64,000 bases of DNA from contig OX597821.1 of the NCBI GenBank assembly GCA_951406725.2, positions 34,472,001 through 34,536,000 on the forward strand. Direction: 5' to 3'. The notes beneath the pieces are model-generated. The model was not told the DNA's origin. It worked only from the letters and a program-made list of their open reading frames with translations, and made no database searches. Below, piece after piece: positions 318-59,631 of this stretch (positions within the stretch are counted from its first letter, which is position 1; each line of letters opens with the position of its first letter). Source of the stretch: Octopus vulgaris (taxonomy: Eukaryota). The position numbers were made by a program, and so were the translations under genes.

Positions 318-532
318 CTAGAACCAATGAAGGAGCCTCTATGTGGTTGCTTGACCTGCTAGAAAATAACTGCAAAGTGTCCTTCAAATCTCAAACTACT
401 GTTTTCAAATGCAAGAGAAGACACATAATACGTAGTCCAAGATACCTGTATGAAAGCTGGAATGGTAATAGCTAGATTGTCTTTGATTGTAGAACTGATT
501 GATTATGGTTTACTTGAGGGCTAAACAACAAT
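318..532 (+). mobile_element. Old ~210-bp interspersed repeat (family J) with HDV-like ribozyme-shaped 5' end and (CAA)n tail
   Basis: Core 'gagcctctatgtggttgcttgacctgctagaaa' recurs in more than 12 diverged copies in the window; ends in gggctaaacaacaa. Confidence 0.65.
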
Positions 533-846
533 GATCACCGTGATCACCGTGACCGACCAGGCCATCAGATGTTGCTACACATCGCTGGTCACAATGCGCT
601 TTGCATTGTTTTAGCCTTCAAATGACACCACCCTGCTGGCTAAGCAAACAGGCCAACAGAAGAAAGAGTGAGAGAAAGTTATGGCGAAAGAGTACAGTAG
701 GGATCGCCACCACCCCCTGCCGGAGCCGTGTAGAGCTTTAGGTGTTTTTGCTCAATAAACACTCACAACGCCCAGTCTGGGAATCGAAACCACGACCCTA
801 CGACCGTGACGCTGCTGCCCTAACCACTGGGCCATTGCGCCTCCAC
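533..846 (-). mobile_element. tRNA-derived SINE family C, full length
   Basis: Minus strand has A box tggcccagtgg and B box ggtttcgattcc; tail cacggtgat x2; 10-bp TSD aaacaacaat (523-532/847-856); second copy at 29563-29879. Confidence 0.9.
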
Positions 847-6974: not shown

Positions 6975-7190
6975 AATCCTGTAGTATTCTGTCAAGAGCA
7001 ATGCTTGTTTATTCACCTTATTTTGTATTAATCCTGCATTATCTTGAAGCTTCAAGATTTTGCTTATGTAATGGTTTATTTTTAGAATAATATTGTAGGA
7101 TAAATGTAAGAGGCCAGATCTGGCCAGTTTGGACATAAAAGAGGCAGAATATTTGGGCAGGATGTGACCGGGTTAATTACTCAAGGGTTA
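6975..7190 (-). mobile_element. piggyBac-type MITE (family I), degraded
   Basis: Reverse complement of 39691-39910; ends aagggtta. Confidence 0.7.
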
Positions 7191-7816
7191 TGGCAGAGTA
7201 TGATTTGAGGGATATCTGGCTGTTGTTTTTAGCAGATTGAGTGACTGTGTAGAGGTTCACTCATTGGCTCATTCCAGGAATATAGTGGGATGTAGTGAAT
7301 TTAATGCTTTTGATGAAGTATTAAGTACCGTTTACTTGTTTTAGTCATTGGATTACAGCCATGCTAGGACATCTTCAAGGGTTTAATGAAACAAATTGAC
7401 CTCTGTATTTATTTGCCAAGAGGCTGGTACTTATTCTGTTGGTGTCTTTTGCTGAACTGCTAAGTTATGGGGATAAAGAAACCGGCACTGGCTGTCTAGC
7501 AGTGTGTGGCAAGGTTAACAGTTATAAACACAAACATGCACACATGCACACACGCATGTACATGCATGCGTGCATGTGCGCACACACACACACAATGGGC
7601 TTCTACACAATTTCTGTTTTCCTAAATTCACTCACGAAACATTGGTCCGTCTGGGGCTATAGTAGAAAAAACTTGCTTAAGGGGTGCTGCAGTGTGGAAC
7701 TGAACCCCAAACCACATGGCTATAAAGCAAGTTTCTTCAATTAGTTGGCTTTCTGTTAGAGTACTGTTCACCACATACATTGGTCAGTACAGTAACAACA
7801 CTTAAAAGCATAAACC

Positions 7817-10395: not shown

Positions 10396-11838
10396 TATAT
10401 TCTCCATCAACCATATAGGAAGCACTCTGCCCAGTTCTTGCTTGGACATTAAAGTATCAGGAACCCTGTCCCCAAATTTTCTCTGCAAGAATCAACCCAA
10501 TCTCCATAGTCTGAGAGAACCTGTAATGACTATAGGACTTTTTGGTGGATGAGCATTAAATGGTTTAGAAAATATCTTCCTTTCTCTTTTTGCAAAAACA
10601 TGCATTTAACTGGACAAATAATGTCTGTAAGAAGCAATAAGGCAATATTAGGGGTCCCCAATATTGACAAGTCTCGTAACCCTTTTGGAGATGCTGGGGC
10701 ACTGCAGCCATGCAGCATATCAAGGAGGAGAAAGCCTGGTGGAGCCCATCCCTCTCCAGGCTAAACTCATTTCTACAGTTGAGTGGACTGGAGCAATGTG
10801 AAATGAAGTGTTTTGCTCAAGAACACAATGTGTCACACTGTCCAGGAATCAAAACCACAATCTTACGCTCATAAGTCCAACAACCTAACCACCAAGCTAT
10901 GCACTTCCATGATACCAAGTGACAAACCAGTACCAGGCCATGGTTCATTTGGTCCCAAACCACACAGAAAGAATATATTTTGAAATTTTATTTCTATTTT
11001 ATTGACTGTCACAGTCTGCAGGGTGCTTTTTGCATTATATATGTATTGTCTAAGTCACCATTAAATTATATATTATGCATTTTATTGTTATTCACGTGAT
11101 CCCCGAATCCATGGAACTGGGCTGCGGTTCAAAAAGCGGTTGGTAATTGCTGTTCTACAGGGTTGTTCGCTCTGGTAGAAACAATAGTCAACCCTCTCCC
11201 AAATCATATCCCACCAGCTTAAAAGAAACTGGAAGGACACATTAGGATAATTTAGTGTTTGATATGTGATGAAAAAGAAATGAAAAAAAGATAAATATAT
11301 ATGGAATGGTCATGTCTGTACTGACTTTGTTCATGTCCTGCTCCCTCGTGATTGACATTAAGGGCTTGCACAGCTACAACAACCATACCTGTACAAACTG
11401 ATGTTCCTTACATTCTCTCTTCAGAGGGGTTACTGTGACATCAAAGATTTTTCAGAAGCTCTTTTGTTAAAGTATAAAATTGCTCTGAAAATAAGTTACA
11501 AAGGAATAAGTAACGCACTGCCTTGGCCTCCTCTTGGCCATTCTTCCTTGTGTACAATTCTCTGTGACTAAACCTCCTCAGAATGCCAAATAAAATAGCA
11601 AATCAACAATCCAACCGGCCAGCCGACCGACCAACCAACAAACACAATGACTATATCATCATGCCTGTAGTGATCTCTTTGATATTGCGATGCACTTACT
11701 GTTGCAGTGTTCAACTAACTACACAACAGTTCTGTTGCAGTATTTTATTCAACTACATTGCAGTTTTGTTCGTTTTTAAAAGGTTTACAGTTTGAATCAC
11801 ATGTTACGATGATGTCATAAGGAATGCACCGACACCAG

Positions 11839-23417: not shown

Positions 23418-23789
23418 GGGTGCAAGAATGGCTGTGTGGTTAAGAAGCTCATTTTGCAACCACAGGATTTACAGTTCAATCTCATTGCATGATGTCTCCT
23501 TGTGTGTGGATTTGGTAGATTGGAACTTTGTAGAAGCCTATTGTGTGTGTGTGTGTGTGTGTGTGTGAAAGTGCATGGCCTTATGGCTAGGGCATTGCAC
23601 TCACCATTGTAAGATGCTGGTTTTGATTTCTGGACTGGATGGTGCTTTGTGTGCTTGTGTAAATACTTAATTTCACATTGCACATTTGAAGGTTATTTCG
23701 CTGCTACTTCTAGCTGGGCAAATGACCACAAGAAGCTTCCTATGTTATTGTTGTTTAATCTCAGGTCAGTTCTGACACTTAAACCCATT

Positions 23790-24680
23790 AGGATGCTACT
23801 GCATAACTTGACACTAAAACTAGATGATCCCTTTACGTTGCTTAGGAATCTTGATCCCTCTCACCTGTGTAATGGAACTCGCTTAATTGTTACTTCCATG
23901 AAGCCCCATGTCCTACAGGCAAGAATCATAACAGGTAGTTACAGAGGAGAAAATATCTTTATTCCAAAAATTCCTGTCATATCTTTTGAATTTAAGATGC
24001 TTCAGTTTCCAGTTAAACTAAGTTTTGGTATTTCAATTAACAAATCTCAGGGTCAATCCCTAAAGGTAGTTGCACTTGATCTCTCTGCTACATGCCTCTT
24101 CTATGACTAACTCTATGTTGCTTTCTCATGACTTGGAAGCAGCAACAATTTATTCATTTTGATACCATCGTAAAATTGCACAATGAATATTGTTTATTCA
24201 ACATTGACCGTTGCCAGCGCCACCCTGACTGGCCTCCGTGCTGGTGGCACATAAAAACCACCATCTGATCATGGCCATTGCCAGCCTCTCCATGCTGGTG
24301 GCATGTAAAAAGCACCATCCGATCATGGCCGTTTGCCAGCCTCATCTGGCACGTAAAAAACACCCACTACACTCACGCAGTGGTTGGCGTTAGGAAGGGC
24401 ATCCAGCCGTAGAAACATTGCCAGATCAGACTGGGCCTGGTGCAGCCTTCTGGCTTCCCAGACCCCAGTTAAATCGTCCAACCATGGAAAGCAGACGCTA
24501 AACAATGATGATGATGATGACAGATTTTCAGTTTGAAATTCTATTATCGTTACGATTTGGATATTTTTTGATAAAATATAGATATTTTGAAATAATTATG
24601 AGAATATATCTTTATATTTATTGTTTACTAATCTGAATAAGGACAGCAGTAAGCCGGGCAATGCTGGGTAGTTCATCTAG
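23790..24680 (+). mobile_element. Helitron 3' portion: PIF1-like helicase C-terminus plus 3' terminus, interrupted by an RTE tail (24205-24520)
   Basis: LLRNLDPSHLCNGTRL...QFPVKLSFGISINKSQGQSL...LYVAFS; subterminal gccgggcaatgctggg followed by CTAG|t. Confidence 0.9.
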
Positions 24681-26374
24681 TCTAATATATTCTTTTCTTA
24701 TTAAAAGCTGTAGGGAATCGAAGGGTATTTGGCTACCATTATTAGCAAGTTGATCAAACAAGAGTCGCCCTACAGGAGTTGTTGCTGTTTCAAGCTGCAT
24801 TGACCAAATCAGACCTTATATAGCAGCAGAGCTATCTGTAGTCAATAGCATGTTCTGCGTTCAATAAGTGCCACTCATTGTTATTACAGGAAGAGAACAT
24901 GGTTTTCTAATTAAACCAGGAAATTAGGCTGTTTTGTACCAAATGTAGTTTATTTCTAGTATAGAACATTATTTTAGCTGTTGCAGCTGCTATTGCGTTG
25001 CTGTTGTTGTTGTTGCTGTTGTTCATATTGATGCTGCAATTGCTATTGTTATCGGTGTTTCAGGTTTTGTTGTTGTTATTGTTTAGCCCCAGGTCAGCTG
25101 TTATCGAACAGGGCTGTGATCAAAAGGCTTCTGGATCTAATCAGATTGTCTTTTTCCAATGTGCAAAGAACACAGGACCACATCATCTAATGTACCCTTT
25201 TCTTTTCTTTTTTTGCCGGTGTTACATAACTGGCACTCATGCTGGTGGTACATAAAATGCACCCACTACACACTTGGAGTGGTTGGCATTTGGAAGGGCA
25301 TCAAGCTGTAGAAACAATGCCAAATCAGATTGGAATCTGGTGCAGCTCCCCAGCTTACCAGTTTTCAGTCAAACCATCCAATTCATACCAGCTTGGAAAA
25401 TGAACATTAAATGATGATAATTATGATGATGATGATGATGATGATGTTAAATGGCACATTTTAATTTGGGGAAAATTTGGTTACTTTTTCTAGCAGGTTG
25501 ATCTCAGGTGTTGTTGTTCATAGTACTGATGACTTTTAATTTTAATGTTAATTCTAGAAACATTTTAGGTTGGAGTGTCATCATCATTATTGTTGTTGTT
25601 GTTGTTGTTGTTGCTGTGGTTGTTGTTCCTGTGCTGACGACGACAATATGTATTCAAGCTACAATAAATGTATACCACCTTCAAAATTCACAACAGTACC
25701 AAGTCAATAAGTTGGTTTCCATGTGGTCACTCAGCCTGCTAGAAATAGCACACATAGGATGACTATATCAATTGTACCCTTTTCAAAGGCACTAGGATGT
25801 ATTCTGAAGGAGTTTGACTGTTACGTCAGGTTGATCAACCATGAAGATGCTCTGTTGTAGGCATGTGCTCCTTTGCTGGAGGTGACACTAGTAGTACTTG
25901 TGTTGGTATTATGTTAGGAGTTGCAGTAGTACTTGCCTTTAATAATGATGATGATGATAACGATAATCATGTAATTGTTGTTGGAGTTATAGGTAGTGGT
26001 GTTTGCGTTGGTACAGGAGGTTGTCAGCTTTTAAAGTAGCCATGATGTTTATGCTTGTTGTGGTGTTGGTAGTGGTGGTAGTGGTAATCATTGGTAGCGA
26101 TAATGCTTGTGTTGACACTAGCTGTAGTCACGGTGGTGGTACTAACAGTGACAGTCATAGTGGTGGTGGTTATGTAGTTGACCATTAATTAAGTCCACAG
26201 TGCGCCTGATTCAATTGTTAATGTAAAGAGACTTTGTCTGATTGATTCTCGCACAGCACATAAACACTGCATTGTATTGATGCAACAATGTAATATTAGA
26301 CTGACACAGATCAATTGTTCAATAATATTGGTTAATTGATTGCTTGATTGGCGAGCGAATTAATTGATTTAATT

Positions 26375-28337: not shown

Positions 28338-29504
28338 CTTTGTTAAATTGTTGTCCTAATTGAGGGTGTTGGTGGTGGTGGTGTTGATGGCAGTGCTTCT
28401 GTGACGACATCATAGATTCTCCAACAGTCTTGTTGTCCCTGCTTCAACAGATGCTCACTTTTGATCAGAAGTAGTGGATCACATTAATATATTTGATTTG
28501 TTCTGTCTTGAGTGTGTTACTGGACATGGTTTCATCAGATTTAGTTAATTTTGTGATCGTTTCCATTGATACATAACAACTAAATTGTTGTTGTTGTTGT
28601 TGTTGTTGTCGTTTAGCTTCAGTGAATCTTGATTGAGCTGACCATTGATTAAAGACATCCCGCTTACAATCATCACGATCTTTCATTCAAGTACAAGAGT
28701 ATCATGGACTACATTATTCAATGTGTCATTCTTTTTTAAAGCTTGTTCAGTGTAAGTTTCATTGAAACCATACATTAATGTCTTAGAATAAGAAGACACA
28801 TTGGTCAGTGTAGTCCCTGATATACTAATCACTGAAATGGTTACTACTAGAATACTTTTGATCATAGTTTTTACCTGGGTTAAACAACTACAACTAAAAC
28901 AAAATGGGGGAACCATTACACCAGAGAGTTCTCAACTGGGGTCCTTCCCTTTGCCAACCCTCACCTGTTTTCAGGTATGGTAATATTTGCCCATGACCAG
29001 ACATGTTTTCCTGGTGACATTTATTTTTACGGCTATCACTCAAAAGTCAAAAGCAAGAAGGCAGTAACAAGCATACCATCCACACAGACACATACCTCCA
29101 TCCATCCATCCATCCAGGTGCAGGTATGGCTGTGTGGTAAGAAGCTTGCTTCCCAACCACGTGGTTCCAGGTTCAGTTCCACTGCATGGACTTTCAGCAA
29201 GTGCCTTCTACTATAGCCTCAGGCCATCCAAAGCCTTGTGAGTGGCTTTGGTAGGCAAAAACTGAAGAAGTTCGTCACATATATATATATGTTTATATAT
29301 CTGTGTGTGTGTCTGCGCTTTACATCTGGTGTTGGTGTGTTTGCATCCCCGTAACTTAGCGGTTCAGCAAAAGGAACTGATAGAATAAGTGTCAGGCTAA
29401 GAAGGAAAGCCCTGGGGTTGATTCATTTGACTAAAAATTCAAGGTGGTACTCCAGCATGACCGTAGTTAAATGACTGAAACAAGTAAAAAGATTTAAAAA
29501 ATTG

Positions 29505-33308: not shown

Positions 33309-33566
33309 CTGGAATATTCATCTCTCTTTATATCTGTACTCTGAGGTATATTTACTTTGTACTAATACTGATGAAAGTGTTTGGCACTGTGTGATTAGTT
33401 TCAATGGTGTTGGTTGGTGGTGTCGGTGGTGGTGGTGGTGGTGGTGGTTTTCCTCTATGTTTACAACACTGAGAAACGCTGGTTATTAGTCGGACCAGTG
33501 TATTGTTGCTAGCATGAGAGTTAATAATGTTATTAGTACTTATCTCGTAATTGCTTATTCATTAGT

Positions 33567-33937
33567 GTTGCTGTTGCCTAGCTCCTGTTAACCCTCATCA
33601 AACAGACCTATGCTCTAAAGCGTTCCAGTTTTGAACATCCTGTCTATTTTTACAGACATATCTAGAATTACAATGTTTATTTCGTGTTTTTTTTGGTTTT
33701 TTTTCAAAAGCAGTAGGATGGAATTTGATAGAGACTTTGCTGCTATTTCTAGCAGGCCAAATAACCCTGTTGAAGCATTCTTGTTGGCTTGATTTTGTTG
33801 TTAGCATTGTCTCATTACCATGTAGGATTATACTATCCAAATGCATCATTTCCTTTTTTTAAGACAGCTGGGTTTAACTTGAAGGAGATTTTGGTTGCTA
33901 TTTCCAGCAGGTTGAGTGACCACTTAGAGGGATCCTT
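33567..33937 (-). mobile_element. Two adjacent family J repeats
   Basis: ctgctatttctagcag (perfect GAAA hairpin on the minus strand) and ttgctatttccagcaggttgagtgaccac. Confidence 0.65.
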
Positions 33938-34399
33938 ATTGTTGTGGCTGGTGGTGGTGGTGGTGGTAGTGGTGGTTATTCTAATACTATTGCTAACATT
34001 ACTGGTTTAGTCATGGTGATTGTCTTTATTGATGTTTGGAGCTGATAATGATGTTTTTACGATGATCTTCAAATTCCATTTTGTTTTTGTATCTATTTCT
34101 TTTTTATTTATTGTTATTCATTTTTATCTGAAATAATAACATGTCTACTCACTATAACTGTTTGCTGAGAATTCAGTTTATATAATTTTGTTTCTCTCTC
34201 TCTCTCTCTCTCTTTTCCAAACACCTCCCGCGGGTCCTCACAGTCTGTTTCCTCTCTGTCTATTTATCTACCTGTCTACCTGTTTCTGTCTCTTCCTTCT
34301 TCCCTGACCTAGTCTCATCTACTGCAGTAAATTTATAGTATTGGTTTATGTGACAATATTTCATTGTTGTAAATACATGATGTTTACTAATGAATCTTG

Positions 34400-44658: not shown

Positions 44659-46011
44659 ATCATCATCATCATCATCGTTTAGCGTCCGTTTTCCATGCTA
44701 GCATGGGTTGGACGGTTCTACTGGGGTCTGTGAAGCCAGAAGGCTTCATCAGGCCCAGTCAAATCTGGCAGTGTTTCTACGGCTGGATGCCCTTCCTAAC
44801 GCCAACCACTCCGTGAGTGTAGTGGGTGCTTTTTACGTGCCACCCGCACTGGTGCCAGACAGAGCTGGCAAACGGCCACGAACGGATGGTGCTTTTTATG
44901 TGCCACCGGCACGAGGGCCAGGCGAGGCTGGCAACGGACACGAAACGGGGCGGTGCTGGCAACGGTCGCGAAACGGAAAGTTCTCTTACATGCCACCGGC
45001 ACTGGTAACACATCTGCAATTTCCATTGATCGATTTCGATTCTGATCCTCACTTGCCTCAACGGGTCTTCACAAGTAGAGTTTCGACATGCCACCGGCAC
45101 TGGTAACACATCCGCAATTTCCATTGATCGATTTCGATTCTGATCCTCACTTGCCTCAACACGTCTTCACAAGTAGAGTTTTGTGTCCCATGAAGGGAAG
45201 GTATGCATACGTAGGCTGGCTCCATCCCATGTAGAAGGCCACGCGTTATGAACTCACTTGTCCTGCCGGGTCTTCTCGCGCACAGCACACTTCCAGAGGT
45301 CTCGGTCTCTAGTCATTTCCTCAGTGAGACCTAAAGAGCGAAGGTCGTGCTTCACCACCTCGTCCCAGGTTTTCCTGGGTCTGCCTCTTCCACAGGTTCC
45401 CTCAACCGCTAGGGTGTGGCACTTTTTCACACAACTATCTTCATCCATTCTCGCCACATGACCATACCAGCGCAAACGTCTCTCTTGCACACCACAACTG
45501 ATGCTTCTTAGGTCCAGCTTTTCTCTCAAGGTACTTACACTCTGCCGAGTGTGAGTACCGGCATTACACATCCATCGGAGCATACTGGCTTCATTTCTAG
45601 CGAGCTTACACATATCCTCAGCAGTCACGGCCCATGTTTCACTGCCATGTAGCATGGCTGTTCGTACACACGCATCATACAGTCTGCCTTTCACTCTGTG
45701 CGAGAGGCCTTTTGTCACCAGCAGAGGTAATAGCTCTCTGAACTTTGCCCAAGCTATTCTTACTCTAGCAGTTACACTTTCAGCACACCCGCCCCCGCTG
45801 CTGACTTGGTCACCTAGGTAACGGAAACTATCAACTATTTCTAGTTTTTCTCCCTGGAAAGTGACGGAAGTTGGTCTCAGAGCATTTTCAGTGTTTATTG
45901 TTCCTGAGCATCTGCCACATACAAAAACCATCTTCCTAGTTAGCCTTCCTTTGACATTGCTGCATCTCTTATGTGTCCATAGCTTACACTTGGTGCATCT
46001 TATAGAGTTTC
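44659..46011 (-). mobile_element. 5'-truncated RTE-clade LINE (3' 1.35 kb) with (GAT)n tail
   Basis: Open RT C-terminal ORF, repeat-containing 3' UTR, tail ggacgctaaacgatgatgat. Confidence 0.95.
45254..46011 (-). CDS. RTE retrotransposon polyprotein C-terminus (partial; Cys/His finger plus RT thumb region)
   Basis: CTKCKLWTHKRC..FVCGRC, VDSFRYLGD, AMLHGSETW, RRLRWYGHVARM, GRGRPRKTW; the ORF track's N-terminus is (TA)n-derived. Confidence 0.9.
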
Positions 46012-47056: not shown

Positions 47057-47984
47057 AGTTGATAGTGCAGAGTATTGGGGAGGTACAATATAGGCCACAA
47101 GCAGAGAGATGAGTGCATCAGGAGTGACTGAGTGGAGGTCATATCAAAGCAAGCACCTCTGAGGAGTGAAGGCCACTGTAGAAGAAGAAGAAGGAAGAGA
47201 AGTAGTAGCAGTAGCACATTTGTGAACCAGATGTTGGAGTATATTGGAGAGTAACTTTATACCTGTCATTTAATCTTGTAGCACCTATTGTAAATAACAC
47301 TTATTGATAATTTTTAGTGTCACAGATTCCCTATATTATGGGAAAAAACTCCCATCAAAATCGAAAGTTTGGACAAGTAAAAATTATTTATACTTGAACT
47401 CCGTTACATATAAGCAATTATGTCTCCTGGTTGTTGCAAGTTTTTCAATGATGCGTTTTGATTTGCTTAATAATTTTTTTCCCTTGTATATTAATTAGTA
47501 AATTTAGGTGTTATAGGATTAAACCATTGATTACTTATTGTATTTTATTCATCCCTATTGTGAACACACACACACACACTCTGTATGACTGGCTTTCACA
47601 CAGTTCTTGCCTACCAAATTAACTCACGAAGGCATTGGACTATGATAGATTCATAGAAGAAGACAATCAACATTGTCATGCAGTAGGATTGAAACCACAA
47701 CCATGACGTTTTCAAGCAAACTTCTTAACCACACAACTATGCCTCTATGTTAAGGTTTCTCAGTTTCTAAAAAACGTTTTTTGATAAAAGCTCTGATTAA
47801 GTTGGTTTGTTGTTCTTTGTTGTTTAACCCCAAGTCAACCCTGATTGAGTAGGCCTATGATTAAAGGCATTTTAAGCCTGAACTGACCATCCTGTCTTTT
47901 TCTTTATCTTGTGCCATATCGTATAATGTGTCCTTCCTTTCACAAGAGTGTGATTTTAAGATTTTGTTGTTATTAACAAGCGTA

Positions 47985-48225
47985 AATTGGCACATTTCGG
48001 TCATATTATGCGGAGAGAATCCCTGGAGAAGGACATAATGCTCAGAATAGTCAGTGGCAAGAGAGGAAGAGGCCGACCAAGAACCCGCTGGCTTGACACC
48101 ATCAGGAGTGATACCGGAATGGACATGGCCAGTCTGAAGGAAGCGGCCCAGGATAGAACTGACTGGAGGACACTGATCCAACGAGTGACCGAGAGTCAAC
48201 TTCGACTGAGCGGATAGAGAGAGAG
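47985..48225 (+). pseudogene. 3' end of a second RTE lineage (BovB-like C-terminus)
   Basis: FGHIMRRESLEKDIMLRIVSGKRGRGRPRTRWLD..AAQDRTDWRTLIQRVTESQLRLSG* then (GA)n. Confidence 0.85.
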
Positions 48226-49048
48226 TTATTAACATGTTGAGAGACCATATCTGAGACTTCTTTGTTGAGTTGTGTTGTTTTAGTCGAGACCAGTGTCAGA
48301 ACAGATCTTTTGTTAGTTGGCATTATAAAGATTATAAAGTGTTGATTGTTGTTGTTGTTGTTGTTGTTGTTGAATAACTTTTATCATGGGTATTTGTGCT
48401 AGTGCCACATTAAAAGCACCCAGCACACTCTGTTAAGTGGTTGGCATTAGGAAGGGCATCCAGCTGTAGAAACCAAGCTTAACCAGACTGGAAACTGGTG
48501 CATCACTCCTACTGGCCAACACTGATCAAACCATCTAACCCATGACAACATGGAAAAATAGACGTTAAAGGATGATGATGATGATGACGATGATAATGAT
48601 GATGATTCCAGCTATCACAACCTCATTTGTTTTTTTTTAAGACATAATGTACACCTAAGAACAAAAACCAGTGTGCCCTTTCCAAACAGGGTAAGATGTA
48701 GTTTGAGAAAGATCAAGCTGCTATTTCTAGCAGGTTGATTCAGCATGCTGTTGTTCTCTCCTTGGCTCTCAAAAATAAAGCAGGGGGCAGACTGCTCTGG
48801 TGTTGATGGTAGTATAACTTGTTAAGTTGTGAAAAGATGGCTAGGTGTTTTAGAAAAATCTGGTTGGTATTTCTAGCAGGTTTATTCAGCTTATGCTGGT
48901 TCTTTTGCTTTGCTAAAACAAAACAAAAAAAAAAAGTGTTTGGAGTTGCAGTAATAGTTGTATGGTTGTTGAGTTGTGATAAGATAAATGAGCAGCTGCT
49001 AACACAATCCTCATGTAATTAATTATATGTCAAGTTCCCTTCGGAACC

Positions 49049-49325: not shown

Positions 49326-49869
49326 GGAAGAATAATACATAAATGTGTATTTAATATTTAAAATCTGACTGTTTGTTGATCGCCAGTAATTCAAGATGAA
49401 AAGATGAAGATTAAACCACATATGAAGATCACTGAATAATTCCCGTTTCCCAGTGTCTAGTTGAGACAGCAATAACAACGAATTAATGATGGAGTCTGTA
49501 TGTTGTTTGTTGATTGCTTGACCTGCAACAAATAGTAGATAGATATCCCTCAAAAAATTACACAATACCATCTTGTAAAAATGGAAAAGCAACAACAAAA
49601 AGAAAATACTAGATAAAGTAATCATAGAGTCCTAGATATGTTTTGTCTGAGAATAAGTTGGGATAGCCTTGAAATGAATTTCACTGAGCTGGAGCTAAAC
49701 AGAAAGAGAATTTAATTGCAAATCTACCAGATAGATGGAAGAGCATTGCAGAAAATGAAGGAGAGTATATTTTAGATTAAAAAAGAACTCTGTTTATCTT
49801 AATTTTGAAAAAAAGAAGTTTTAAAAAGCCACATTATTTATGGGATGACCCAATATGTAGCAATATATA

Positions 49870-50190: not shown

Positions 50191-50639
50191 TGATGAATTT
50201 ATAGATCACAGGAAAAGACTTGATGTATTTCCATTTAATGATCTGACTGAAGGAGTACTGACATGAAGGTCATCACTTTTGGACTCTCTCAGTAGAATGG
50301 TCAGGTTAAACAGAGCCCAGTAACAATTAGTGAACCAACAATTAGTGAACCAACAATTAGTGAACTAACAGTTAATAAACTAGTAATTATTGTTGCTCTG
50401 CTAATTAGACCGTTTAGTTAATGAGTGTGCACCTGTTGCGAGCATTTGAACCAGCTCACCCATTTGCTGATAACTTGAGACCATTGCATTTTCTTCCTAC
50501 CACAGACAGACCTGATGCCCCTAGAAATAGCAACCTGATGTCCCTCAATTTGCATCTTAACCTTACTGTCTTAAAAATATAGGAATATATTGGATAATAT
50601 AATCCAGAACAAAGCACAAGCACAAAAAAAAACATAAAA

Positions 50640-51048: not shown

Positions 51049-52890
51049 GTGACCATGATTTGTAAGTCACAGACCATCGGTCTCCTCCTTCATAACTAAC
51101 CTAGAAATAAACACCAACAACTGACCCATGAGCCTTGGTTTCTTCCCCTCTTTCTCACCACCAGTCTTGGAAACATTATTAAAAATCCCAACACTTCCTT
51201 TTCTCCTTCCTAGAAATAGAATTGGTGAGCTTCTATGTGGTAACTCACTCAACTAAAAATAGCAACCAAATGTCCCTTAAATTTCATCTTAACTTTACTG
51301 TTTCTTCCCAAATCTGTCTCTGTCAAACTCTCAACTTTGACCAGTTTGAAATATTTTCAAGAGAAAGTTTTGCGACTCTGGTTGTGGATAAAGAAGACAG
51401 TGGGAATAAATTTAGCAATTTTTGGCAAAATATATGCCCTTTTGCCAAGTTATAACAAAAAGTTAGTGAAATATTTAAAATGTTTACAGTTGGATAGATA
51501 GACAAATATAACAAAATAATTTGACAAAAAAATGTGAATTTTTAATTATTTTCTGAGATTTTACAAAAACAACAAAAATATTATTAAAAAAAACCCAAAA
51601 ATATTTTAAAATTTTGGAAATTAGTATCAGTGGTTGCAGGTATGGCCATATAGTTCAGGGTTTCACTGACTAACCACCTGGTTCTTGGTAACCATCACAC
51701 TGTCTAGCACTTAGGGTCTATGTTTTCTACAGCAGTTCCAAAGTGCTCAGTATTTTGTCAGGAAAATTTTATGTTTGGGAGACAGAAACTATACAAAGCC
51801 CTGTCTTGTGCATGTGTGTGTGTGTGTGTGTGCATATCTATTGCCAATGTACATTGCTGAAATTTGGGTACTTGGAGAAAACTGGATTAACCAGTGCTCT
51901 ATGAAAGAAGTTACTTGAGGTATTTGTTCTGCATTGAGTCAGACACTGATCCTTTCTCATTCTTGTCATCAGAAATGCAGAGAACTTGCGATTGGCTGGT
52001 TGGACCCATTTAATCAACAATGCTTTTGTTCAGTAAAAATTAACAACACCATTATCTGCACTGAATGCAAAACATGCGACAGGCGTTCCACAATATGGCT
52101 GTGTGTGTGTGTGTGTGTGTGTGTCTACAGCAAAACACCTGTATCTAACTCTAACTCACTGTCATGGTTTAACCTCTCATCACCTGGCACTAAGCCACCT
52201 CCTTCAATACTACTCCCCTTCTCATTTAAGAGGGATTTTTTGGTGCCATGAAAAAAGCACCCAGTACACTCTGTAAAGCTGTACAAAAATCATGCCAAAG
52301 CTAACGAAAGACCTCCTCGGCACAGTCCTCTGGCTTGCCAGCACCTGTCAAAACGTCCGACCTGTGCCAGCATGGTGTTGGTGGTTGTGTGTGTGTGTGT
52401 GTGTGTGTGTTTTACCTTGTGTACATGCATTCAGTATACTCATAGCAACCAATGAGGCCAGCGCTGTTTGCTTGCTTCCTGGTTATTCAGGAATCAGGAC
52501 GAAAGATTTGATTGTTGTTAAAAAAAAAAACAAAAACAAACTAAGCTGTCAAATCTTTTTCAAATCATACCTTATCATCATTAAACAATATGGAAAGGTA
52601 TACTGGATAGTGATAATCTGCAAACAATTCAAAAGTGGAATAAATCAGTTTGCTGATTTAGAAGTAAAAAATAAAAGTAAACCCTATTGTTTATCCTCAG
52701 AGAGGATACCATTTTCTTCTGAGAAAGACCTTATTCTCAAATGAGTTTTGCTGTCTAAAACTTCAAACCTTTCTTCTTTCCTGTAGTAAAATTCACTTTC
52801 GAATTGTTTGTACTCAGTAATTGCCTATACAAGCCATCACTAGTTTACACTAGTTTCCATGGGTCTTACTGTTTACTTTATAGGATAATG

Positions 52891-58346: not shown

Positions 58347-58800
58347 TGGACGTTAAATGATGATGATTTTTTGGTAGATATTTAGCACCATTACTGGAAT
58401 AACCATGAAATTTAATTTCACTGTTAAAGGGATAAATTTTGATGAGGGCGAAATTTTCCATGGGACTGAGGATTTCCACATCCTGACGTTTGACTTATTA
58501 GAAATAGCAACAAAGTTACTCATGTCACACCTCACCATCTTCAGAAAAAGAAGGAAAGGACATATCTAGATGATAGTTTCAAATTTTGGCACAGGGCCAG
58601 CAGTTTTTGGGGAGAAGGGGCAAATCCTTTAACAGCAACCCTAGTACTTGAATAATATTTATTTTTATCGACCCCAACAGAATGAAAGGCAAGATTGAAC
58701 TCGTTGGAATTTTGAACTCAGAACATAAAGACGGACGAAATGTCACTAAGCATTTTGTCCGATGTGCTTGCTGCCTTTAGTACATATTTAAATAATGCAA

Positions 58801-59477: not shown

Positions 59478-59631
59478 TCCAACTAGGCAGCCTCCATGTG
59501 ATTTACTTTATCTGCAAGAAATTGCAGTCACAGTTTCCTTTACATCAAAGACTACTCCTCTGAGAAAGGAAGGACACATGAAGTAAACATGAGGCAGATA
59601 ATTAAAGCTGAATGAAGCTAAACAACTACAA
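59478..59631 (+). mobile_element. Family J repeat copy
   Basis: gcagcctccatgtg...ctgcaagaaattgcag...gctaaacaactacaa. Confidence 0.6.

Follow-up and report, generated by a model that had tools for sequence, protein, structure and literature searches.

A dead, high-copy retroposon family whose reconstructed 5′ head follows the helix order of HDV-like ribozymes

Introduction

Ribozymes of the HDV/CPEB3 type share a core ordered P1-P2-P3-L3-P1.1-P4-J4/2, with an L3 loop that starts with U and ends with CGU and a C-N-A-A junction; in the strict form, P1 has 7 bp and begins with G+1. Related folds head several kinds of retrotransposon. Ribozyme-headed short partners have been described for ingi LINEs in trypanosomes (PMC3185411) and for R2 in flies (PMC6765202), and Ingi is among the clades with 5′ ribozymes and bipartite derivatives (Kojima 2018, PMC5786205). 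In the active L1Tc ribozyme the first base is a C opposite G, and P1 is followed by U instead of G (from primers; PMC3185411, PMC4748587); its P1.1 has one or two pairs, and it cuts at the element +1. Pr77 is a promoter and a ribozyme with the same +1, and degenerate Pr77 signatures are present in trypanosome SIDERs (PMC3383444). The P1 of R2 ribozymes has 6–7 pairs, a quarter of them having top mismatches, and one is active with 4; in an Anopheles funestus ribozyme, loss of activity was blamed on a C-C mismatch in P1 (PMC3774820).

The family described here was followed through a 64-kb stretch of AT-rich, CpG-depleted DNA (observed/expected 0.41) with many microsatellites, called the window below, and through the genome from which the window comes (G000; 2.8 Gb, 227 contigs), which its repeat content suggests to be octopus-type. 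It is a real, old and very abundant non-coding retroposon of ~215 bases. Its head resembles CPEB3/HDV in helix order, in the start and end of L3 and perhaps in the C-N-A-A junction, but it has C+1 in place of G+1, a shorter P1, a U-A instead of a C-G P1.1 and no Rfam match; moreover, it belongs to a mobile element and not to one conserved locus.

The closest likeness is to NARTc, RIME and SIDER with the Pr77/L1TcRz hallmark (PMC3185411, PMC3383444, PMC4035085), which, as our family appears to be, are short non-coding partners of ingi-clade LINEs. Shared with the Pr77-type elements are an HDV-like fold in the first ~70 nt, a (here predicted) cut site at the element +1, a C+1 paired to G, a single-pair non-GG P1.1 and tandem copies. 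Unlike these trypanosomatid elements, the family occupies an animal genome in about 10^5 copies, ends in an (AAC)n tail, has a P1 of 5 pairs plus a C-C mismatch and a body for which no sequence partner was found, and its cleavage is only predicted. The R2 SIDEs and R2/R1 hybrid SIDEs of Drosophila (PMC3414825, PMC6765202) are likewise ribozyme-headed, non-autonomous and read-through-dependent, as the family is proposed to have been, but the family is dispersed genome-wide rather than rDNA-specific and has a small head with a 3-nt J1/2. With the bipartite RTE, Ingi and Vingi LINEs (PMC5786205) it shares a LINE-type 5′ end, a microsatellite tail and the lack of a Pol III head; its tail and head point to an ingi-like element, not RTE, and a bipartite body is only a candidate.

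Results

A first profile for the 215-bp family, made from 30 genome matches, gave 76 matches in 654 kb and none in a reversed control. With the refined profile, 26 matches at E ≤ 1e-3 were obtained within the window, and these overlapped all 13 positions at which a sequence-only reading of the window had listed more than 12 diverged copies. On the forward strand, the profile matched a 5′-truncated copy (11154–11392), a head fragment (25697–25750), two other fragments (50521–50607 and 58487–58573), a head (51214–51291), a copy with a double change within P4 (59475–59579) and a full-length copy missing from the earlier list (49475–49706). On the reverse strand it matched a head (7190–7281), a head fragment (23684–23741), a further fragment (24677–24757), a copy at 48603–48769 and two head-to-tail copies at 33556–33941, which consist of 33941–33818 and a full-length 33795–33556. 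At 28593–28915, two 5′-truncated copies lie back to back on opposite strands, with the junction at ~28755. The window also holds RTE-like reverse-transcriptase fragments at 47972–48214 (+) and 45344–45868 (−).

In 49 regularly spaced 10-kb loci of G000 there were 46 family matches, which extrapolates to ~2.6×10^5 detectable fragments in the genome; the density in the window is ~4 times that of this sample. A 16-mer of the family tail had 986 exact genome matches, compared with 1 for a control. Identity to the consensus, with CpG sites excluded, had a median of 71% and reached 85% at best (76 copies). The Jukes–Cantor divergence of 0.37, combined with the octopus substitution rate that PMC13282606 quotes, 0.0036 per Myr, gives an age of roughly 100 Myr, a rough figure. 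No young subfamily was found, as 16 copies with CpG-intact cores had decayed elsewhere as much as other copies.

The family unit is ~215 bp with a sharp 5′ edge at C+1, a base that occurs as CG, TG or CA, the decay states of CpG. No base was conserved in the 20 nt upstream of 60 copies, and ARAGORN found 0 tRNAs in the consensus and Rfam none, bearing out the earlier claim that there is no tRNA head. The terminal sequence of full copies is GGGGCTAAAC(AAC)n, as had also been read. The 3′ end was reached by 86 of 150 matches and the 5′ end by 51, with 25 reaching both, and the excess of 3′-end copies is the polarity expected from target-primed reverse transcription. The flanks of 37 full copies matched each other better than shuffled pairs did (6.59 vs 6.22 for 10-mers; sd 0.13), giving p values of 0–0.04 for four lengths (k = 8–14), although some of these copies are related; the target-site duplications are a weak signal. 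Among 27 cases of neighbouring copies within 100 bp, 22 had both copies in one orientation, and 13 of them were tail-to-new-copy. At locus L025, 787–1300, four tandem head-only fragments are followed by a longer copy.

The family is non-coding and dispersed, and carries marks of target-primed reverse transcription in its 5′ truncation, its repeat tail and its weak duplication signal. Its sharp 5′ edge, (AAC)n tail and 3′-anchored copies agree with the proposed non-autonomous retroposon without a tRNA head, and we regard its being a retroposon as nearly certain. Helitron and MITE readings were rejected on inspection, as there are no terminal inverted repeats, the AAC tail is variable and the copies are 3′-anchored. 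No hammerhead or twister cores were seen by eye, and viral contigs held no relative.

The reference copy, which had been placed at 318, starts at window position 320 on the forward strand; this base, the consensus C+1, is position +1 of the element and the site of the predicted cut. Its decayed HDV-type head (320–385, consensus positions 1–65) keeps 3 of 5 pairs in P1, all 6 in P2, all 3 in P3 and 4 of 6 in P4, and the P1.1 pair is intact. The 5′ strand of P1 (consensus CGAGC plus the mismatched C) occupies 320–325, and that of P2 329–334, with its partner at 380–385; TGAAGGA at 328–334 does pair with TCCTTCA at 380–386, as had been read. P3 and its loop lie at 335–347, where 335–337 pairs with 345–347 through a first G-U pair and L3 (consensus UCUACGU) fills 338–344, so that TCTATGT is indeed enclosed by GCC/GGT in this copy. 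The 3′ strand of P1 (348–353) is followed by A354, the predicted P1.1 partner of U340, and by C355. The P4 hairpin (356–372), which has a GAAA-type loop, is clean in the consensus as claimed but damaged here, with one extra A and two changes. The J4/2 region (373–379, consensus C53 C54 A A A) keeps C53 at 373 and has lost C54.

Beyond the head, the body at 386–517 consists of a CTACCG-type motif and an A run, in the order in which ingi-derived heads of G000 have them, then ~110 bp of unmatched sequence, and the 3′ end GGGCTAAAC(AAC) lies at 518–532. The tail resumes at 847–856, after a younger tRNA-type SINE (533–846, minus strand) inserted within it, which carries words resembling A and B boxes among its first 70 nt and has a 10-bp target duplication at 523–532 and 847–856. 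A contig of another organism (E) spans 206–514 and 847–1000 as one piece. The copy at 320 therefore predates the split from E, and the SINE, which is absent from that contig, is younger than the split.

The head was modelled on the CpG-restored consensus, positions 1–65. P1 pairs 1–5 with 30–34 and has C6 opposite C29, giving 5 pairs with a top C-C mismatch. J1/2 is AAC. P2 pairs 10–15 with 60–65, and a seventh pair is possible. P3 pairs 16–18 with 26–28, the first pair being G-U, around an L3 of UCUACGU, and P1.1 is the single pair U21-A35, which 28 of the 34 heads aligned keep. P4 has 6 pairs and a GAAA loop. Either of the two cytosines of J4/2, C53 C54 A A A before P2, is a candidate for the catalytic base. 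The core is one base short, having either a 6-position P1 with C-C and a P3 that opens with G-U or a P3 of 2 pairs, and the distance from C53/C54 to the strong P2 register is 5–6 nt. The first ~65 nt of the restored consensus fit, from +1, the delta-ribozyme helix order that had been proposed, and a head descended from an HDV-like ribozyme is in our judgement very likely.

A relaxed HDV-type descriptor matched the consensus once, from position 1, and had no match on the opposite strand or in the 3′ part. Dinucleotide shuffles fitted it in 0 of 50,000 cases, and its topology alone in 0 of 20,000 (25 of 5,000 for a loose version). These counts flatter the head, as the descriptor was relaxed afterwards to admit it; the agreement between the predicted cut site and the element edge was not built into the descriptor. 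The nested minimum-energy fold (−21.0) keeps P2 and P4 but places a small hairpin over the 3′ strands of P3 and P1, compared with −18.3 for P2+P3+P4, where pseudoknots lie outside the scoring. All helices were intact in only 4 of 89 near-complete heads. The best-conserved block had been assigned to the 5′ end; this holds for P4 (83% vs 68–75%), perhaps through detection bias, but the head is otherwise not clearly better conserved.

Covariation, on which the sequence-only reading had counted, was absent among copies: 0 of 22 proposed pairs rose above background in 295 copies (lowest p 0.044), and the score of 34 aligned heads was reached by 28 of 500 shuffles. This absence is what neutral decay predicts, and so is evidence neither way. 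With no covariation among copies, the double change of the copy at 59478, cited as support for P4, is not evidence; it is one of 3 at that pair among 200 copies, which is not significant. Rfam gave no match in the 20 best heads, and in the window only microsatellite-driven matches among the 150 of 236 listed. The Rfam blank carries little weight, since the clear folds of two outside LINEs described below (L337 and L401) are missed likewise.

Could the fold be a coincidence? The family would then be a truncated tRNA-derived or ordinary SINE with chance complementarity in its restored consensus. Besides the empty Rfam and covariation results and the afterwards-tuned descriptor, this account can point to a B-box-like word at +30 to +38. 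It has to contend with the rarity of the topology in shuffles (25 of 5,000 in loose and 0 of 20,000 in strict form), with a match that begins exactly at +1, with the blank ARAGORN result and unconserved upstream sequence, and with the fact that Rfam misses clear folds too. We consider it very improbable.

Several details of the head depart from what had been proposed for it. Instead of the strict 7-bp P1 with G+1, the head has 5 pairs, a C-C mismatch and a C+1-G pair; the short P1 noted earlier stands at 5 pairs, but its C+1 start and top mismatch go beyond the GAGC/GCTC that had been read. Nor is the strict P1.1 of L3 CC with J1/4 GG present: the ancestral bases are A35 C36 (A in 91 of 118), so the GG gives way to one U-A pair, the only one possible. 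An ancestral L3 of TCCACGT is contradicted by the 69 copies, out of 94 unbiased ones, that have T and so give TCTACGT, and by 1 exact genome match for the TCCACGT form as against 16 for the TCTACGT core. The L1Tc/ingi (Pr77) type is hence a better model than CPEB3. The P1 falls within the range of retrotransposon ribozymes (6–7 positions, top mismatch allowed; PMC3774820), and the head has the one P1.1 pair that is the least found in the L1Tc form. Given the deviations of L1Tc and R2, the family head lies inside the known ribozyme envelope, but near its edge in view of the C-C precedent.

Five outside loci that bear a 2A-like motif were compared. Two of them, L337 and L401, have a complete HDV-type fold at the 5′ end; in L321 and L332 no such fold was found upstream of 2A. 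L336 opens with a 12-nt identity to the family core, but the locus is cut off, and L323, L332 and L336 end in (AAC)n. L337, a marine-metagenome LINE that is intact and ingi-like, has a clean fold at 342–429 with a P1.1 of U-A plus C-G, and has in common with the family C+1, a J1/2 of AAC, an L3 starting UCUACG and the U-A P1.1 pair; the same stretch holds an AT-rich false fold of equal score. The L401 fold, at 548–625, likewise heads an ingi-like LINE, and its L3 is interrupted by a hairpin (20-nt loop); the L401 contig, within a bacterial MAG, is probably eukaryotic contamination. Alignment to the family head was significant for neither (p 0.16 for L337 and 0.61 for L401), and covariance model R1 left the heads of the outside ingi-like loci undetected.

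Searches of G000 for a partner LINE by endonuclease and reverse transcriptase gave mainly CR1 and RTE. Neither family end was common to the RTE and CR1 elements of G000 (8 RTE segments compared), and the tails of sampled RTE families were GATA-, GAT- or CAT-type repeats. Searching by RNase H recovered low-copy remains of single-frame LINEs; they fall into three families that have RNase H plus a zinc knuckle, all of which end in (AAC)n and two of which have a 2A-like motif. The motif, GD(V/I)ExNPGP, is typical of ingi among other clades (PMC3708506) and occurs at 3 places in G000, two of which led to the 5′ end of one LINE family (L468, L470). A DNA search gave 9 related heads, four LINE-type and five from a younger short element; the four LINE-type heads and four short deleted copies are HDV-type from the first base. 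In a 15-row tree of the RT region, which held no named ingi and not the third family (L236), two of the G000 families grouped with 2A- and RNase H-bearing metagenome LINEs, away from RTE and CR1 (support 88/90). The ingi label that we provisionally give these LINEs rests on such features.

The near full-length but broken L286/L468 (C10:3419802-3424480) has an HDV-type head, the 2A-like motif, PHD-like fingers, endonuclease, RT, RNase H and an (AAC)n tail. The ingi-like L237 (C11:30770250-30771250), L472 and L473 have inverted 5′ parts, which suggests twin-priming-type insertions in this clade. The L237 family is also 56% identical to pipefish protein P0001, with which it grouped at full support; a horizontal transfer is possible.

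The G000 ingi-like heads have a 7-position P1, a P3 of ACC/GGT and a C-G P1.1. In a hand alignment, the outer three pairs of their P2 are those of the family and the inner three are compensated. A CTACCG-type motif follows these heads, with an A run in the short element, as in the family. Aligned globally with seven of these heads, the family head gave p values of 0.005–0.07; among 1,960 random windows, one had as high a score. The end GCTAAACAAC is common to the family, the ingi-like LINEs and the short element; the shared 3′ sequence of the family and the LINEs, GCTAAAC plus (AAC)n, amounts to ~10 nt plus repeat. The body (about 95–205) matched none of the LINEs found, among which the top candidates of each own-genome search were scored; a GWNAFD-like likeness to L236 was rejected as not significant (E 0.96). 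By these comparisons, the ingi-like heads appear to be relatives of the family, not its parent. The exact partner, a LINE sharing both ends, was not found; the ingi-like LINEs recovered have an apparently related head and the GCTAAACAAC end.

An ingi-like partner is nonetheless probable, and the AAC tail and related head make it likelier than R2 or RTE. A working HDV-like ribozyme might have owed its mobility to an RTE, or another LINE, that is now extinct, or an ingi head might have been joined to an unrelated body in a chimera like the R2/R1 hybrid SIDEs. RTE elements do carry HDV-like ribozymes and form bipartite derivatives (PMC5786205), and the body matches no LINE among the candidates scored. 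But the sampled RTE families end in other repeats, and the AAC tail, the GCTAAAC end and the related head are common to ingi-like LINEs only; we think such a mobiliser or chimera improbable.

The younger short element bears on whether the head cut at all. It is a low-copy, internally deleted derivative of ~280–300 bp in which the first ~210 bp of the LINE are joined to its last ~70 bp (L475–L479, at C20:13818541, C6:28572428, C19:358297, C28:1511503 and C6:130105392; L475 is interrupted and L479 is without the 5′ part). Its P1 is a perfect 7 bp, compensated against the LINE, and those copies whose 5′ end is intact begin at P1, with ~3 independent 5′ junctions. The J4/2 cytosine, kept in the four LINE-type heads, is A in all five copies of the derivative; the old family, unlike the derivative, keeps both J4/2 cytosines. 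If the derivative spread without cutting, an exact 5′ edge is no proof of cleavage, which makes a Pr77-like promoter the main rival.

In that rival account, the family has ingi-type ancestry but its head no longer cut, and served as a Pr77-like internal Pol II promoter from +1 or as a protein-binding fold that protects the end, the HDV shape being a residue. The joint promoter and ribozyme of Pr77 at one +1, the core that is one base short with its competing hairpin, the five derivative copies starting at P1 without the catalytic C and the degenerate Pr77 signatures of the trypanosome SIDERs all suit it. It sits less well with a master sequence that keeps all helices, the single P1.1 pair, the U..CG of L3 and two J4/2 cytosines, since a promoter alone would not maintain 6–7 perfect P2 pairs, or with the ~3 independent 5′ junctions of the derivative. 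This account is a serious one but in our view doubtful. That the source element did cut seems reasonably probable.

Discussion

The reading that we favour, with modest confidence, is that the family is a dead high-copy retroposon whose source likely had a working HDV-like head of the L1Tc/Pr77 type and probably relied on an ingi-like LINE for its copying. In this model, the head would fold into a double pseudoknot within host read-through transcripts, and C53 or C54 would cut 5′ of C+1, releasing a unit-length RNA whose 5′ end is protected. Its 3′ end would be bound by the ingi protein, which would reverse-transcribe it at A/AAC-rich nicks; these would often lie in the tail of an older copy, yielding head-to-tail pairs. 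Amplification would have ended roughly 100 Myr ago, after which the copies decayed neutrally, so that nearly all present copies would be inactive.

A bolder form of this reading supposes that a non-canonical 65-nt ribozyme (C+1, 5-pair P1, U-A P1.1) drove an ingi-dependent retroposon to ~10^5 copies in an animal genome, with a few percent, those that keep all helices, still cutting host pre-mRNAs and sense intronic copies purged by selection. As it stands, we hold this to be unlikely.

We found no published account of a family of this kind from an octopus-type genome, or with so many copies; Repbase, Dfam and Ruminski 2011 lay outside this comparison. The supplement of PMC13282606 has no mention of ribozyme or Ingi, and the family may already carry a name in the external consensus library of that paper.

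If the favoured reading is true, it explains a major unclassified repeat that lacks a Pol III head. It would widen the sequence space of HDV-like ribozymes, since Rfam misses such folds, and would imply that animal ingi-like LINEs generally begin with an HDV-type fold. If the non-canonical ribozyme reading were true, the family would be among the largest ribozyme families of any genome. A LINE head with the C, a short derivative without it and an ancient family would also form a series within one genome in which cleavage can be set against promoter activity as the setter of the 5′ end.
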